DNA of 64,000 nt from Thermoplasmatales archaeon UBA447 (GTDB lineage Archaea; Thermoplasmatota; Thermoplasmata; Thermoplasmatales; Thermoplasmataceae): contig DARE01000053.1 of assembly GCA_002503205.1 (NCBI GenBank), positions 17,305 through 81,304 of the forward strand, given 5' to 3'. Both the position numbers and the translations under genes were made by a program. Numbering within the stretch: the first letter of the stretch is position 1; each line of letters begins with the position of its first letter. The notes beneath the pieces were generated by a model. The model did no database searches and was not told where the DNA came from. It saw nothing but the letters and a program-made list of their open reading frames with translations. Of this stretch, positions 53,073 through 59,391 are shown piece by piece.

Positions 53073-56000
53073 ATGATAGTCGAGTCTTTGGAACTGGATA
53101 ACTTCAAGTCCTTCGGTAAGAAGGTTCAGATATTTTTTAGAAAGGGATTTACGGTGATAAGTGGCCCAAATGGAAGCGGGAAGTCCAACATCGGGGACTC
53201 ATTCCTGTTTGTAATGGGTGAACGGTCAAACAAGACTGTTAGGGCTGACAGGTTGTCAGACCTCATCCACAAAAGTTCTAAAGGGGAAAGGCAGAAAAAT
53301 TATTGCAGCGTTTCAATAAGAATAGATACTGAGGATAAAAGCGCGGAAGAAAAGGACAGGAAGGTGGAGATTAGAAGGGAAGTGGTATCTGAAAGTGATG
53401 GCTACAAATCTAACTATTTCATAAATGGCCGCAAGGTAAGGTATTCAGAGGTTTCCACAATGCTGGATTCTTTCCGGATTTTCCTTGACTCTTACAGTTT
53501 TGTTCTCCAGGGTGACATAAATAATATCGTGAAAATGAGTGGAGGCGAGAGGAGGAAATTGCTGGAATCCATAGCCGGCATAGAAAGTTTTGATCTGCAG
53601 ATTGACAAAGCAAAATACGATATTGAGACTCTTAACTCAAACCTTGGTAAACTGGAGGTTCTGGAGGAGGAACTGAAGGGCAGGAAGATCTCTCTTGAGA
53701 TTGAGAGGGAGATAGCCCAGAAATATATGGACCTGACAAACAGGCTGAAAAACCTGAAATTCACTGAACTGTCGATTCAACAGGATTTCCTGAGGAGGGA
53801 AATAACATCACAGACAGACCAGATCTCATCATTCGAAAATGAGATTCAGCAGCTAAATTTAGAGGTCTCAGAATTACTGGCCCAGCTCAATGATCTGAAA
53901 AGCAGGATTGATGTAGAAAAAGAAAATCTCGAGAGAACCGGAAATTCTGAGTTGAAAGAGATAAGGCAAAAAATTCAGGATCTTAAAATCAGTCTTGCCT
54001 CCAACCGGATGAAGAGTTCTGATCTGAAGGACAACGGTGCATCAGTAAGATCGGAAATTGAGTCAAATACAAAATATCAAGAGGAATCGTCCAGGAGGTT
54101 ACAGTGGCTCGAGTCTAACATAAGGGAAAGCGAAGCCATTTTAAAGGAAACATCTGATAAGTTGTCAGAGAAGAACGAAATACTTAAAAAACTGAGAGAG
54201 TCCTCAGCAGAGAATTCTAAAGTTCTCATGAGTCTGCAGGAGTCAATCCGCAGACACGACGAAGAACTATCAGTAATGAATTCAGAGCTTGAGTCGCTGC
54301 AGGAAAAACAGAAGGAGCTGGCAGTGGAAAGAAGCCGTCTTAACACTGAGATGGCTTCAATTGAAAATCGCATAGGTGAGGTTGAATTCCAGATTAAGGA
54401 TTACAGGTGGGCAATAAGGGAGATAAATGAAACTGAAACAACAAGTTCAGAAAGTTTTCAGGAGCTTAACCGCAGATACTACTCCCTGAAATCAGAGCTT
54501 TCGGCCAAGAGGCAAAGGAAGGATGAGATAGTTAGGGAGCTCTCAAGGCTTAACCATGAATATTCTCAGATCCAGATTTCACTGGGTTCCCGTGGATTCA
54601 CAGTAAACAGGGCTCTGGCCACAATTCTGGAAGCAAGAAACAGCGGCTCAATACAGGGAATTATAGGGCCTCTAAAGGAGTTAATCTCCTATGACCAGAA
54701 GTTCAGGCAGGCAGTTGAGGCAGCAGCAGGCTCAAGGCTAAACTCTGTGGTCGTCAGAGACGATGGGGTTGCCGAAGAATGCCTTAACCTGCTTAAGTCA
54801 AGCCGAACCGGAAAGTTGACTTTTCTGCCTATGAACAAGATGCTCCCAGGCAGGCCAAGGGGAAAGGCAATAACTGTGCGTTCTTCCGAGGGATCCCTTG
54901 GGTATATATTTGAAAACCTGAAGTACCATGAGGAGTATTCAAACGTAATATGGTACGCATTTCAGGATACTGTGATCGTGGATACCGTCAGATCAGCCCG
55001 AAAATATATGGGTGGCATTCGTATGGTCACACTTGATGGGGATATTTTTGAGGCTAGTGGAGCTATATCCGGTGGATTTACGGAAAGAGCTAAGAATAGT
55101 GAGGACCTGGAAAACAGGGCAAAGTCTCTCTCAGAATCCATTCAGGCTCTCAATGCTGAACTCTCTTCTCTAGAGGTTGATATTGCAGATATTTCCGCAT
55201 CATTTGAATCTGTATCTTCTGATTTGCAGTCAAGATCGCAGGATCAGGGTTCCCACAAAACAAAACTTAACATGCTCAACGAGAATCTTGAGAAGGCAAC
55301 AGTGCAGCTTGACGAGCTGAGGCCACAGGAGGAAGCAAAGAAGAGGGAGATTACAGATCTTGATGTAAGGTTTAACTCTATTTCAGCTAGCATAGAGGAG
55401 ATTAAGAAAATGATATCTTCTGAGAATGAAGCGAAGGAAAAAGATTTCACTGAGTTCAGAAGAATTTCTCCATCCTATGCTTCCCAGGACGAGGACCTGA
55501 ACTCGGAGATAGAATCCCTTTCATCCAAGAAAAGTGAATACGCCCTGGAAATATCCAAACTCCGTTCAGAAATGGAGTTCATACAGAAGAATGTCCAGAA
55601 TGTCATATCAAAAAACAGAACACTTGAGGACGACCTGAACTCAAAACGTTCCCAGATATCATCACTTGAGGCTCAGGAGAAAACATTATCTTCTGATCTT
55701 GAAAAACTTCTCGCGCTTGAAACTCAGATCGATGAACGAACCAGAGAGACAGTTGAAAGAATAAGAAGCATGGAGCGTGAAGAAAGTTCCATCAATGATA
55801 GCATCGAATCCACAAGAGCTATGATTTCAACAAAGAAGGAGATGATGATAACCCTTCAGGGAAAAAGAGAGAATTCACAGAACAGGTTAAGGGATATTGA
55901 AGGGGAGATCAGTATATCGGAAGGCACCAGGATCGAATCCGTGAAAACGGTATCCGAAGCAAGGTCATTGATGACAGCAACCATGAACGATATAGAATCC

Positions 56001-56648
56001 CTGGGACCTGTGAACCAGAAGGCTATAGAGGAGTTCGATAAAGTATCCAGGGATCTCGATTCAATAAGAGGGGAAATTGAACAGCTCTCCTCGGAAAAGA
56101 AACAGCTTGTGGATCTCACTGAAAGGCTTACCGAACAGAAGAAATCCGCATTCATGGATATGTTCCATGGTATAAACAATTCAATGAGAGCAATATATGA
56201 ACAGCTCTCTGGAGGTGGGGATGCTTTCCTGGAGCTCAGTGATCCAGAAAATCCTCTGGAGTCTGAAGTCACTATAAGGGCCAGGCCGAAGGGGTCGAAC
56301 TTTACAAAACTTGAAGCACTGAGTGGAGGAGAGAAAAGCCTCACCGCTCTTTCATTTATCCTTGCGGTTCAGAGAATCAATCCCTCTCCATTCTATTATC
56401 TGGATGAGGTGGACATGTTTCTTGACGGAGCAAATGCAGAGAGGGTTGGTAAGCTTTTCAAGGCAAACTCAGGGACTTCACAAATATTCTCTGTTTCTTT
56501 GAGGAAATCAATGCTGAAGTACGCAGATAATGTGGTAGCTGTGGTTAATGTCGATGGTGAAAATTCCAATGTATACGAGAAGAGTTTCCATGAGGGGTTA
56601 GATCAGGAGAGAGGTGATGAAGACGAACAGGGAAGAGATTCTGCATAG
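53073..56648 (+). CDS. smc: Chromosome segregation protein SMC
   Basis: NFKSF, GPNGSGKSN, QG Q-loop, hinge (TLDGD...GAISGG), LSGGEKS, LDEVD. Confidence 0.98.
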   Translation: MIVESLELDNFKSFGKKVQIFFRKGFTVISGPNGSGKSNIGDSFLFVMGERSNKTVRADRLSDLIHKSSKGERQKNYCSVSIRIDTEDKSAEEKDRKVEIRREVVSESDGYKSNYFINGRKVRYSEVSTMLDSFRIFLDSYSFVLQGDINNIVKMSGGERRKLLESIAGIESFDLQIDKAKYDIETLNSNLGKLEVLEEELKGRKISLEIEREIAQKYMDLTNRLKNLKFTELSIQQDFLRREITSQTDQISSFENEIQQLNLEVSELLAQLNDLKSRIDVEKENLERTGNSELKEIRQKIQDLKISLASNRMKSSDLKDNGASVRSEIESNTKYQEESSRRLQWLESNIRESEAILKETSDKLSEKNEILKKLRESSAENSKVLMSLQESIRRHDEELSVMNSELESLQEKQKELAVERSRLNTEMASIENRIGEVEFQIKDYRWAIREINETETTSSESFQELNRRYYSLKSELSAKRQRKDEIVRELSRLNHEYSQIQISLGSRGFTVNRALATILEARNSGSIQGIIGPLKELISYDQKFRQAVEAAAGSRLNSVVVRDDGVAEECLNLLKSSRTGKLTFLPMNKMLPGRPRGKAITVRSSEGSLGYIFENLKYHEEYSNVIWYAFQDTVIVDTVRSARKYMGGIRMVTLDGDIFEASGAISGGFTERAKNSEDLENRAKSLSESIQALNAELSSLEVDIADISASFESVSSDLQSRSQDQGSHKTKLNMLNENLEKATVQLDELRPQEEAKKREITDLDVRFNSISASIEEIKKMISSENEAKEKDFTEFRRISPSYASQDEDLNSEIESLSSKKSEYALEISKLRSEMEFIQKNVQNVISKNRTLEDDLNSKRSQISSLEAQEKTLSSDLEKLLALETQIDERTRETVERIRSMEREESSINDSIESTRAMISTKKEMMITLQGKRENSQNRLRDIEGEISISEGTRIESVKTVSEARSLMTATMNDIESLGPVNQKAIEEFDKVSRDLDSIRGEIEQLSSEKKQLVDLTERLTEQKKSAFMDMFHGINNSMRAIYEQLSGGGDAFLELSDPENPLESEVTIRARPKGSNFTKLEALSGGEKSLTALSFILAVQRINPSPFYYLDEVDMFLDGANAERVGKLFKANSGTSQIFSVSLRKSMLKYADNVVAVVNVDGENSNVYEKSFHEGLDQERGDEDEQGRDSA

Positions 56649-57414
56649 CCTCATAGTTCAGGGAAACATGCTGGAAAGCGATACGGAGAATTATATCACC
56701 ATACTCGAATCCTCAAAAACAGAGATACACTTCGATGATCCGCTGGAGGAGCTCATAGCAGGGGTTTTCAACATGTGCCTCAATGGAACACTTGATCCCT
56801 GGTCTGTGGACATCGGTGCCTTCAGCAGGATCTTTTCAAATTTTATAGACCGAAATTTCAGGGATTTCTATGTTGCAGGATACCTTATCCAGAGTGCCTG
56901 GAGGATACTTTCACTGAAGTCTGATGAAGCCGTTCTAAGAAGATTCAGGAGTGAAGAGGAGGAAAACGCAGAGGAAATTGAATTCGAAGATGGAGTTAAC
57001 ATCAAGTCCCGGGAAGATCCCCTGGAGCTGAAAGAGCCAGTCATACACAGTGAAAGGAGGAAAGTTTTCCTCGTCGAGCTTTTGGATGTGATGAAGGATG
57101 CCTATGAATATTCTGGGAAAAAACGGCATGAAAGGAGATTTGAAGTTGAACATCCAACCGGAGATATAGATTCCATATTTGAGAAGCTTCACCCGGAAGA
57201 GCCTGAAAAGGAGGCCAGGGACATTCTGGATGTGATCAAAAGCATTAATTCTGAGCCAATCAACATAGACAGTATTCCAACAAACCTGGGAGTTACAGGG
57301 CAATCACTGCTTGTTTACTGTATGTTTCTTGCCCGGGATAGAGAGATCGATATAGAACAGGAATATCCGTTCGGCCCAATCACTCTGAGGGTTAACAGTG
57401 AGTTGAAAAAATGA
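56614..57414 (+). CDS. scpA: Kleisin ScpA
   Basis: LDPWSVDI, LKSD, C-terminal winged helix EQEYPFGPI; overlaps smc. Confidence 0.9.
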   Translation: MMKTNREEILHSLIVQGNMLESDTENYITILESSKTEIHFDDPLEELIAGVFNMCLNGTLDPWSVDIGAFSRIFSNFIDRNFRDFYVAGYLIQSAWRILSLKSDEAVLRRFRSEEEENAEEIEFEDGVNIKSREDPLELKEPVIHSERRKVFLVELLDVMKDAYEYSGKKRHERRFEVEHPTGDIDSIFEKLHPEEPEKEARDILDVIKSINSEPINIDSIPTNLGVTGQSLLVYCMFLARDREIDIEQEYPFGPITLRVNSELKK

Positions 57415-57683
57415 CCTCAATGAATGAACATTCTGAAAATGCAACAAGAATTATCCCAGCATCTGAGATTTCCCAGTATGAGTTCTGCAACGTTGCCTGG
57501 GAGATGGATAGGGCCGGTGTTCCACATTCAACACAATCTTCAGTGAGGATGAGAAGGGGCATAACAAAACATCAGAAGAAAGAGAGGCAATTCCGGTATG
57601 CCAGGGCACTTTCCATAAGCATGGTCATTCTAATGGCTATATTAATAATAACAACTGTACTGATGCTTGCGGGATTGGTTTGA
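57411..57683 (+). CDS. Membrane-anchored protein carrying the Cas4/RecB-family N-terminal segment
   Basis: IIPASEISQYEFC..W...RG...H followed by a basic patch and a C-terminal TM helix. Confidence 0.75.
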   Translation: MTSMNEHSENATRIIPASEISQYEFCNVAWEMDRAGVPHSTQSSVRMRRGITKHQKKERQFRYARALSISMVILMAILIITTVLMLAGLV

Positions 57684-58195
57684 ACGGGCAATTGCTGCCG
57701 GTAATTTTTGTCACTCTAATTCTTGTCCTGTATCTTATTTATCACTTTCTGAGAAAAGCCAACCCTGAACCTGGATCCAGGAGGATATACAGCGATCTAT
57801 CATCGAGCGGTAAAATTATTGTCAGTAACAGATACAGAATTTCTGGCAAGCCCGATATGATTATGCGTAAAGGCAGATATCTGGTTCCATTCGAATACAA
57901 GAGCACAGACGCTGATAGGCCAAGAAGTGGCCATCTGCTTCAGATGGCAGCATACTTCCTGATTCTTGAGGAGAATTTCCCGGAATTGAGAGTGGATCAC
58001 GGGGTTCTGGAATACAGACGAAAGAAATTCAGGATTGAAAACTCCAGAGAGTTAAGAGACCAACTTCTGAAAACTGTCCACAAAATGAGGGGAAGCAATC
58101 TGAATGGGAAAAGAAATCACAATAACCCTGGGAAATGCTTCAGGTGCTCATTCAAGGATTCCTGTTTGCAAAATTTAATTACAGCAAAACGATAG
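57680..58195 (+). CDS. Cas4-like PD-(D/E)xK nuclease with an N-terminal TM helix (solo, no CRISPR)
   Basis: TM at residues 4-23; GKPD, EYK, QMAAY, CFRCSFKDSC. Confidence 0.85.
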   Translation: MNGQLLPVIFVTLILVLYLIYHFLRKANPEPGSRRIYSDLSSSGKIIVSNRYRISGKPDMIMRKGRYLVPFEYKSTDADRPRSGHLLQMAAYFLILEENFPELRVDHGVLEYRRKKFRIENSRELRDQLLKTVHKMRGSNLNGKRNHNNPGKCFRCSFKDSCLQNLITAKR

Positions 58196-58204
58196 AGCGG
58201 AGAA

Positions 58205-59209
58205 ATGTTCCCTGTCAATATTCTTTCCAGAAACATGGCCGAGGTTGTCACAGTGGAAGAGGCGGAGAAACTTGATCCAGAGTCATCCACTGCCTATATT
58301 GGTTTTGAGCCCTCCGGGCTTCCCCATATCGCCACCGGGATACTCTGGACCATGAAAGTGAAGGAACTGGCTGAGGCTGGCATCAGGGTAACAGTTTTGC
58401 TGGCTGATCTGCATTCACAGATAAACGACAAACTTGGGGGCGATCTTCAAAGGATACGGGAAAGCGGTAGAATGATAGAGCGATGCATGAAGGCATATGG
58501 CCTCCCATCCGATGTTGAATTCAAATGGGCGACCGACCTTGTAAACAATATGGATTACTGGACAACACTCATAAAGGTTGCAAAGAGTTCAACCCTTTCC
58601 CGGCTAAAGCGTTCACTTCCAATTATGGGAAGGACAGAGGAGGATGCAGAGGGTGACTTCAGCAAATTCATATACCCCCTGATGCAGGTGACAGACATAG
58701 TATACAGCGGCTTCGACATAGCACTTGGAGGCATGGACCAGAGGCATGCCCATATGCTGCAGAGGGATATAGCTGAACGAATGGGAGTGAAGAAGGTAGT
58801 CTCGGTACATGGGAATCTTCTGGAAAGCCTGAAAGGCACAGGTAGGATGGACCCATTTAAGAAAATGTCCAAGAGTGATGCCGATTCGGCCATATTCATG
58901 ACGGACAGTGAAACAGAAGTGGTAAGGAAAATATCCTCGGCTTTCTGCCCTGTAAAAGAGACATCCGGGAATCCTGTGGTTGACATACTCAAATACATAA
59001 TTCTCCCATACTCAGAAGATGGAATAGAAATAGTCCGCCCCCCTTCCAAAGGAGGTGCAATAAGCTTCACAGATTTCGCTGAATTCAGCAGAGTTTATGA
59101 AAAAGGCGAGATTCATCCCCTTGATCTTAAGAAGGCAGTTGCATCCGGATTGAACAATTTGATGGAAAAAGGGAGGAGAGCACTGGCAGCGGATCTTTCT
59201 CCAATGTGA
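58205..59209 (+). CDS. tyrS: Tyrosine--tRNA ligase
   Basis: YIGFEPSG.PHI, YPLMQVTD, GGMDQR, KMSKS. Confidence 0.94.
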   Translation: MFPVNILSRNMAEVVTVEEAEKLDPESSTAYIGFEPSGLPHIATGILWTMKVKELAEAGIRVTVLLADLHSQINDKLGGDLQRIRESGRMIERCMKAYGLPSDVEFKWATDLVNNMDYWTTLIKVAKSSTLSRLKRSLPIMGRTEEDAEGDFSKFIYPLMQVTDIVYSGFDIALGGMDQRHAHMLQRDIAERMGVKKVVSVHGNLLESLKGTGRMDPFKKMSKSDADSAIFMTDSETEVVRKISSAFCPVKETSGNPVVDILKYIILPYSEDGIEIVRPPSKGGAISFTDFAEFSRVYEKGEIHPLDLKKAVASGLNNLMEKGRRALAADLSPM

Positions 59210-59232
59210 TAATGTCCTCCTGCATACAGAAT

Positions 59233-59391
59233 CTATTTCAGTTTTTCCAGCACTATTTTTCCATCCTCAAGGTAGTAGCCAAGTATCTCAGATGGCTGAA
59301 TTCTCAATTCATCTATGACTTTCTTTGGAATTGTAATCCTAAGGGATTTGCTTTTCTTTGAAACATGTGATACGTCAATGAGAGTTCTCAT
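59233..59391 (-). CDS. AbrB/MazE/SpoVT-family DNA-binding protein (52 aa, not in ORF track)
   Basis: MRTLIDVSHVSKKSKSLRITIPKKVIDELRIQPSEILGYYLEDGKIVLEKLK; TTATAT box upstream. Confidence 0.8.
   Translation of the reverse strand: MRTLIDVSHVSKKSKSLRITIPKKVIDELRIQPSEILGYYLEDGKIVLEKLK

Follow-up and report, generated by a model that had tools for sequence, protein, structure and literature searches.

Cas4-family enzymes are known as soluble proteins of CRISPR (clustered regularly interspaced short palindromic repeats) adaptation and DNA-end processing. In Dna2 and AddB, an iron-sulfur (Fe-S) cluster holds an N-terminal element and the C-terminus together like a staple. Here we describe two overlapping open reading frames (ORFs), ORF1 and ORF2, of the acid-mine-drainage organism Thermoplasmatales archaeon UBA447 (Thermoplasmataceae), from which a catalytic domain of the Cas4 type would be built out of two membrane-anchored chains. 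They lie in a stretch of 64,000 nucleotides of contig DARE01000053.1 (assembly GCA_002503205.1, positions 17,305 to 81,304), which was analysed as a whole and is called the window below. We put the probability that ORF1 and ORF2 together form, as its two subunits, a single membrane-tethered nuclease of the Cas4 family outside CRISPR at roughly 0.82; this estimate concerns the architecture only and not the cellular role. The literature searched describes neither a Cas4 that is membrane-anchored or split nor a link between Cas4 and SMC, and a family with a membrane-anchored, split Cas4 is apparently undescribed there.

ORF1 and ORF2 as parts of one Cas4-like domain

Profile searches revealed that ORF1 and ORF2 cover complementary parts of one Cas4 profile (TIGR00372), ORF1 positions 2-47 and ORF2 positions 59-179 of 180. 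ORF1 carries the motifs ASEISQYEFC (Cys26) and G50xxxH54, and ORF2 carries GKPD (D59), EYK (E72 and K74), QMAAY (Q88 and Y92) and C153xxC156x5C162. The pattern of cluster cysteines is intact but divided 1 + 3, with C26 on ORF1 and C153, C156 and C162 on ORF2. ORF2 passes the Pfam cut-offs of both PDDEXK_1 (PF12705; 38 bits, cut-off 22) and Cas_Cas4 (PF01930; 35.9 bits, cut-off 22.7), and it is matched by the Cas4 models of PADLOC with E-values down to 1.6e-20. When a profile of ORF2 was compared with the PDB, the Cas4 structures 8d3l (E = 3.6e-8) and 4r5q were the top matches. A profile of ORF1 built from 18 homologues was compared with the whole PDB, and its top two matches were both Cas4 (8d3l, E = 0.2; 4r5q, E = 0.66), with the Cys and the G..H motif aligned in each. 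Furthermore, hhalign aligned the ORF1 profile with the N-terminus of natural single-chain relatives at a probability of 96% and an E-value of 3.3e-9.

Over 18 homologous pairs, A17, C26, W30, G36, G50 and H54 are invariant in ORF1, and D59, E72, K74, Q88, Y92, C153, C156 and C162 are among the invariant residues of ORF2. By this comparison the motif set is far beyond chance, as every named residue is invariant in the 18 pairs. His54, on the small subunit, is probably a metal ligand; in SSO0001 the G..H motif supplies the metal ligand His62, according to a statement in PMC13621843 that cites Lemak et al. 2013. The intact motifs suggest that the pair would act as a metal-dependent 5'-to-3' DNA exonuclease or endonuclease.

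Structure prediction suggests that the two chains bind each other. The complex was predicted from ORF2 and ORF1 with a 4Fe-4S cluster included and with custom alignments. It scored 0.83, and the best of three controls scored 0.01; in the calibration, which used neither ligand nor user alignments, 58 of 80 solved complexes attained the pass mark, as did 2 of 110 mismatched pairs. The runs share at least 92% of their contacts, and the predicted local distance difference test (pLDDT) value of the partner is at least 74. The confident interface lies between residues 10-43 of ORF1, including Cys26, and residues 46-57, 82-95, 129-147 and 152-164 of ORF2, the last including Cys156 and Cys162; the segments that hold Cys26 and Cys156/Cys162 touch in the model. 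The membrane helices are not among the confidently placed contacts. The complex model supports binding and does not show it.

Hydrophobicity analysis (Kyte-Doolittle, 19-residue windows) revealed one strongly hydrophobic segment in each ORF (Table 1), with maxima of 2.91 in ORF1 and 2.44 in ORF2. In 17 pairs, the 15 flanking residues on the soluble side contain on average 3.9 Lys and Arg in ORF1 and 3.7 in ORF2. The outer tails of the same pairs are 0-5 residues long (mean 1.0 for ORF1 and 2.2 for ORF2) and nearly free of Lys and Arg. This charge distribution fits the positive-inside rule, and therefore both soluble parts are predicted to be cytoplasmic. ORF1 is predicted to be laid out like a tail-anchored protein, and ORF2, its N-terminus outside, like a signal-anchor protein. 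These results agree with a first-pass annotation of the window, which had found Cas4 motifs in both ORFs with the four Cys divided between them, and had taken both chains to be membrane-anchored with their soluble parts in the cytoplasm.

We propose the following architecture. ORF1 would be tail-anchored, and its 60 cytoplasmic residues would give the first helices of the Cas4 fold, the [4Fe-4S] ligand Cys26 and His54. ORF2, anchored by its N-terminal helix, would give the D-ExK-QxxxY core and the CxxCx5C motif. The cytoplasmic parts would dock, so that one Cas4 domain is rebuilt at the inner face of the membrane; because the halves would dock into one domain, both the cluster site and the active site would be composite. 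Translational coupling by the stop/start overlap would keep the halves equimolar. Its homology predicts a DNA nuclease that depends on Mn2+ or Mg2+ and attacks 5' ends or single-stranded DNA.

Several points weigh against this architecture. By itself ORF1 matches Cas4 models weakly (E = 0.1-0.7; 12.5 bits and E = 0.099 against TIGR00372), and ORF2 scores 64.9 bits against TIGR00372, 0.1 below the cut-off of 65. The pass of the complex prediction may stem from likeness to solved single-chain Cas4. The equivalence of His54 and SSO0001 His62 is drawn from motif and spacing. The distance from Cys to His is 28 residues in ORF1, and it is presumably about 31 in SSO0001. We infer cluster binding, nuclease activity, substrate and membrane insertion alike. 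Moreover, the cluster cysteines of the M. mazei Solo-Cas4 are dispensable for activity (PMC12501428), and therefore a shared cluster need not hold the halves together. Finally, the neighbouring genes differ in every family sampled.

Conservation of the split and its single-chain relatives

The pair is kept as two ORFs in 17 of 17 Thermoplasmataceae members with a match, and in all 39 further species-level genomes with enough contig. The junctions between the N-piece (ORF1 and its homologues) and the C-piece (ORF2 and its homologues) are varied. Among the 39, a 4-nucleotide overlap is found in 14, a 1-nucleotide overlap in 8, and a stop with an in-frame start immediately after it in 7; the others have gaps of +1 to +4 nucleotides or an overlap of -7 nucleotides, except for three in which the start of the C-piece is unclear. 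The junction types in relatives are ATGA, TTGA or GTGA (-4), TGATG (-1), 0 and +1 to +4, in three frame relations. Because the junctions vary in this way, no single recoding event could read through all of them. The ratio of nonsynonymous to synonymous substitution rates (dN/dS) is 0.03-0.09 for ORF1 and 0.05-0.11 for ORF2, which indicates purifying selection on both. No inserted or deleted bases were found at 56000-59300 in the contigs of four public acid-mine-drainage runs (one independent DNA assembly and three RNA libraries), and these contigs bridge both junctions.

The small N-piece is also found as a protein family in its own right. A search of 1.84 billion representatives with the N-piece profile gave 869 clusters at E-values up to 0.001, and 149 of the best 150 among these 869 are 77-137 residues long. 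In six of seven sampled N-piece contexts, which included high-GC metagenomic contigs, a Cas4-like gene lies directly downstream with overlapping stop and start, and in the seventh the contig ends at the N-piece. Families f5 and f26 and high-GC metagenomic pairs likewise retain the split, and members of the nuclease family occur in prokaryotes beyond Thermoplasmatota. In the ESM Atlas, the N-piece is found only in unnamed small-protein clusters, mostly labelled bacterial (Chloroflexota), which we take as a lead and not as evidence. In E-plasma-like relatives (L004:1474-1983, L036, L045 and L071), none of the codons ATG, GTG and TTG is available to the C-piece close to the stop of the N-piece, and the codon that overlaps this stop is CTG (CTGA). 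The C-piece of these relatives would therefore begin at CTG, or be translated by a termination-reinitiation that needs no standard start codon.

Besides the split pairs, the family contains single-chain forms. Members from sister families of the same order are single chains of 322-345 residues with four hydrophobic helices between the N-terminal segment and the core. In Thermoplasmatota, the family was found in 280 of 401 genomes (about 70%; 400 further genomes of the phylum and that of the window) and in 120 of 162 genera. We examined 20 loci from 17 further families, of which 18 are demonstrably single-chain, with 0, 2, 4 or about 8 helices. The insertion point of the helices is identical across the single-chain forms, and the C-piece profile finds these forms at E-values of 1e-23 to 1e-41. 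An even number of helices leaves both halves on one side of the membrane, and the even counts fit the view that the split form is a hairpin opened in its outer loop. ORF1 and ORF2 share the marks of the membrane-embedded Cas4-like proteins, namely the N-terminal segment and core, an even helix count (1 + 1) and the conserved insertion point. The pair may have originated when a single-chain membrane-embedded Cas4-like protein, with a hairpin after its N-terminal segment, was severed in the outer loop.

Genomes of family f5 hold both single-chain and split copies. At L026:3253-4501 and L025, the split second copy follows a DUF2240 gene with an ATGA overlap, and a four-helix copy is located elsewhere; in the genome of the window, DUF2240 is on contig C34, apart from the pair. 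In family f31, a single chain of 207 residues (L172:4992-5612) has the N-terminal motif and the core without any hydrophobic helix. This soluble form has either lost its helices or kept the ancestral state. A maximum-likelihood tree of nuclease cores, made by a quick search, supports the split clades f1, f5 and f26 well and the single-chain clade weakly. Its base does not distinguish one fission from several, and the outgroup, L029 and P0148, a single chain from a conjugative element, form long branches. The AlphaFold model of a single-chain relative has four long helices; its mean pLDDT is 69, with about 90 in the core and low values in the helices. The best Foldseek matches of this model are the nuclease folds of Cas4, Dna2 and MGME1.

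The first-pass annotation had proposed a genuine two-polypeptide nuclease, and the split conserved with varied junctions, the invariant ligands, the profile matches, the single-chain relatives and the complex model all speak for it. It had also named findings that would count against the proposal. Of these, an indel fusing the ORFs was absent from the four runs, the Cys of the small ORF proved to be invariant in the 18 pairs, and the predicted complex, scoring far above its controls, suggests that the halves interact.

Gene cluster and candidate roles

ORF1 and ORF2 belong to a cluster of five co-oriented, tightly packed genes (Table 1). The smc product matches TIGR02169 (SMC_prok_A) with 868.8 bits at a cut-off of 729.4, in addition to Pfam SMC_N and SMC_hinge. 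A profile of 20 scpA homologues matches solved ScpA in its N-terminal part (6ivh, E = 4e-7) and solved C-terminal winged-helix domains (5xns, 3e-4; 4i99, 4e-4), and among 20 members of the scpA family Pfam Rad21_Rec8 or SMC_ScpA was matched in 9 and 5. The tyrS product matches NF006330 with 386 bits at a cut-off of 220. At 57411-57414, the ATG of ORF1 overlaps the stop of scpA in an ATGA, the coupling that had been noted in the first-pass annotation. The reading frame of ORF2 is -1 relative to that of ORF1. The GTG annotated as the start of scpA lies within smc, which gives an overlap of 35 nucleotides, and ATG codons are located at 56617 and 56620; in most relatives the smc/scpA overlap is just 4 nucleotides, and the true start of scpA is uncertain here. 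Inside smc there is an imperfect 31-nucleotide direct repeat (56059-56089 and 56179-56209; 77% identity, 120 nucleotides apart), probably a chance match or coiled-coil periodicity.

Table 1. Features of the smc-scpA-ORF1-ORF2-tyrS cluster, in positions of the window
Feature	Position	Strand	Description
smc	53073-56648	+	1191 aa; first gene of the cluster; canonical chromosome segregation SMC
scpA	56614-57414	+	Kleisin, 265-266 aa; start overlaps the end of smc, stop overlaps the start of ORF1
ORF1 (N-piece)	57411-57683	+	90 aa, ATG start; Cas4 N-terminal segment and C-terminal membrane helix (predicted)
ORF1 tail-anchor helix	57591-57680	+	Residues about 61-90 (predicted)
TTGA junction	57680-57683	+	TTG start of ORF2 overlapping the TGA stop of ORF1
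ORF2 (C-piece)	57680-58195	+	171 aa, TTG start; membrane helix (predicted), then PD-(D/E)XK/Cas4 core
ORF2 N-terminal helix	57680-57760	+	Residues about 1-27, N-terminus outside (predicted)
tyrS	58205-59209	+	Tyrosine-tRNA ligase, 334 aa; last gene of the cluster, 9 nt past ORF2

A role of the split enzyme in CRISPR adaptation is unlikely. Tandem- and direct-repeat scans found no CRISPR-like repeats in the window, and there is no cas1 in it, as had been annotated. In the same genome, cas1 adjoins a full-length soluble cas4 on contig C70:1085-2385 (L141 and L142). The organism thus has a canonical adaptation Cas4 on another contig besides the split membrane form, and this makes an adaptation role of the latter improbable.

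A common partner gene was also considered and was rejected, as the neighbours vary by family and none of them recurs. Depending on the family, they are smc/scpA/tyrS, RFC, DUF2240, a TPD protein, an MBL hydrolase, aRF1-like/ABCE1, YifB, an rve transposase, or a relaxase and topoisomerase III (Topo III). The most likely role is, we suggest, housekeeping DNA-end processing near the membrane. In the Thermoplasmataceae subclade to which the window belongs, the pair would simply be co-transcribed with smc-scpA and tyrS.

Of the other roles, the one that survives best, though we consider it unlikely, is that the enzyme guards or processes DNA crossing the membrane (conjugative, transforming or viral) and attacks its ends at entry, in defence or uptake. 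Cas4-family enzymes need DNA ends, which is established knowledge and is stated, with reference to Lemak 2013, in PMC13621843. P0148, a distant two-helix single-chain relative of 278 residues, is encoded between the MOB relaxase and topoisomerase III genes of a conjugative element. One high-GC split pair follows the gene for a YifB/ComM-family ATPase with overlapping stops and starts, and another pair adjoins an rve transposase. However, these are three anecdotes among many contexts, and P0148 is on a very long branch. In Thermoplasmatota the family is found in 280 of 401 genomes and in 120 of 162 genera, in the neighbourhood of housekeeping genes. Core functions show such a pattern more typically than patchily distributed defence genes do, and PADLOC gave only Cas4-type matches. 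The near-ubiquity of the family in the phylum therefore fits a core function better. In the element that carries P0148 (L152:5677-11278), its gene overlaps the stop of the relaxase gene and precedes that of Topo III, and the element also encodes a NikA-like protein, RadC, a type IV secretion system (T4SS) coupling protein and an integrase. The YifB/ComM locus (L144:6196-8923, on a contig of GCA_035652455.1) is a run of four overlapping genes that encode the ATPase, a 140-residue ORF without a match, the N-piece and the C-piece.

The linkage to smc-scpA raises a further candidate role. The order smc-scpA-ORF1-ORF2-tyrS was found in 39 of 39 species-level loci with enough contig, all in one Thermoplasmataceae subclade, and in another 17 loci. 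In 41 of 41 related loci tyrS directly follows the pair; two of these are on contigs that start too late for a view upstream. The spacers leave no room for promoters. From scpA to ORF1 they measure -38 to +36 nucleotides, and from ORF2 to tyrS -23 to +20 nucleotides, with one of 81 nucleotides. Contigs from the RNA libraries bridge smc-scpA-ORF1-ORF2, although such libraries may contain DNA and cannot show one transcript. The first-pass annotation had seen in this operon a module working with SMC. In that role the pair would be a functional accessory of Smc-ScpA, a tethered nuclease that helps at the membrane to segregate, resect or handle DNA. The invariant gene order of the subclade, the short distances between scpA and ORF1 and the bridging contigs speak for it.

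We nevertheless regard this role as quite improbable. The operon is real, but only a single subclade of one family shows the linkage. Within 5 kb, none of scpA, smc and tyrS was found in any of the 20 loci from 17 other families. Beside the Cas4-like genes of families f4, f5, f6, f11 and f26 there are instead genes for RFC, DUF2240, an MBL-fold hydrolase, a TPD protein and aRF1-like/ABCE1. Conversely, no Cas4-like gene was found in the 1.5-kb flanks of scpA loci in families f4, f6 and f7. In seven family members smc-scpA is kept without the pair, and in two of them scpA stands beside tyrS. Moreover, tyrS, which is unrelated to SMC, is packed equally tightly. The genomes compared are related and do not count as independent samples, and a gene order conserved in a single clade can simply have been inherited. 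An accessory subunit would be expected to show linkage to smc/scpA over independent lineages, and the linkage was found in one subclade only. Thus, the linkage on which the annotation had relied holds in one Thermoplasmataceae subclade and breaks down in all other families sampled, which is the absence of linkage in relatives that it had itself listed as speaking against an SMC module. A functional link to SMC is unsupported.

Two loci without the pair were inspected. At L089 (genome G010), scpA stands beside tyrS, and the gap contains an ORF of 85 residues that may be a decayed N-piece; it has a hydrophobic helix at its C-terminus and lacks Cas4 motifs. At L092 (genome G011, 50% complete), scpA is located directly before tyrS, and tyrS looks frameshifted.

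Two further ideas on the operon were rejected. The pair does not replace ScpB, because ScpB is encoded elsewhere in the genome, which matches what has been reported for Thermoplasmatales (PMC7055376). The SMC is not of the defence type: it is a TIGR02169 equivalog with a hinge, and its matches to JetC/LmuB of PADLOC are partial. PADLOC gave no match for ScpA or ORF1, and ORF2 matched only Cas4 models. The analogy with SMC-plus-nuclease defence systems, which the annotation had drawn loosely, does not extend to the SMC itself, which is chromosomal.

It is doubtful, and a shade less probable than a general accessory role, that the pair was recruited to Smc-ScpA in this clade only, so that DNA held or reeled in by the complex is cut or resected at the membrane. 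If this were true, the recruited pair would form a chromosomal SMC-plus-nuclease machine tethered to the membrane. The Fe-S cluster between the subunits would make assembly of the active enzyme dependent on iron or redox state, and the machine could, for example, clear trapped or broken DNA when these wall-less cells divide. The smc-scpA operon thus offers a testable hypothesis on the role, which the comparative evidence does not favour.

Two alternatives concern the architecture itself. It is very improbable that ORF2 is a nuclease alone or as a homo-oligomer and that ORF1, as an unrelated regulator or small membrane protein, only accompanies it. The weak matches of ORF1 alone to Cas4 models and the solo Cas4 whose cluster is dispensable for activity would allow it, but ORF1 aligns with the N-terminus of the single chains, Cys and G..H included, and its Cys, Trp, Gly and His are invariant. 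Without ORF1, ORF2 would miss the first Cys and the His, and the complex model docks ORF1 10-43 onto the core of ORF2. The view that the split is unreal at the protein level, as a pseudogene or assembly error or through frameshifting or read-through into one fused polypeptide, is already largely refuted, for although an indel of one base would join the two frames of this genome and only a stop codon parts in-frame ORFs in seven relatives, the split is kept over dozens of species at junctions that would need -1, +1 or read-through without a common sequence, selection is purifying on both ORFs, no indel appears in the four runs, 149 of the best 150 N-piece clusters consist of small proteins, and each ORF has its own start codon positioned for reinitiation.

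Comparison with known systems

If the model of one Cas4 domain rebuilt from two anchored chains holds, many archaea would have a conserved DNA nuclease at the inner face of the membrane. It would also provide a natural Fe-S cluster that bridges two nuclease subunits, which could be used to study cluster-dependent assembly.

Wadjet JetABCD and Lamassu LmuB with its effector resemble the locus in having an SMC-family ATPase and a nuclease gene in one operon. They differ in that the SMC of the window is chromosomal, the nuclease is Cas4-like and not Toprim/JetD, and the linkage is limited to one clade. The PD-(D/E)XK end-processing nucleases Dna2, MGME1 and AddB/AdnAB show a likeness in fold, as revealed by Foldseek with the model of the single-chain relative (E = 8e-5 to 4e-3). 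Their nuclease domains belong to large soluble helicase-nucleases or to a mitochondrial enzyme, and none of them is anchored in the membrane or split at this point.

Canonical Cas4 (PF01930/TIGR00372; SSO0001, 4IC1; Pcal_0546, 4R5Q; type I-C Cas4, 8D3L; Cas4-Cas1, 7MI4/7MI5) has the same fold, with the one-Cys helix, G..H, D, ExK, QxxxY and CxxCx5C, and the pair is presumably also a metal-dependent [4Fe-4S] DNA nuclease. In contrast to the single soluble chain of 170-220 residues of canonical Cas4, the pair consists of two separate ORFs, each of which has a predicted membrane helix; the division falls between profile positions 47 and 59, and no cas1, cas2 or CRISPR array adjoins. Solo-Cas4, as in M. 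mazei, is similar in having no CRISPR context and four conserved Cys (PMC12501428). The solo-Cas4 proteins described are soluble single chains, and that of M. mazei is a soluble high-order oligomer (PMC12501428). In the survey of Hudaiberdiev et al. 2017 (PMC5704561), the words 'transmembrane' and 'split' are absent.

The closest relatives are the single-chain Thermoplasmatota forms with four helices and 320-345 residues. They share with the pair the N-terminal motif I-S-A-x-[DE]-x-x-x-[YF]-x-[YF]-C-x-x-x-W, the G..H motif, the insertion point and the core motifs, including RNH and CxxCSxxxxC, and neither form has a CRISPR context. Compared with these forms, the hairpin appears in ORF1 and ORF2 to be reduced to one helix per gene, with the chain cut in the outer loop.

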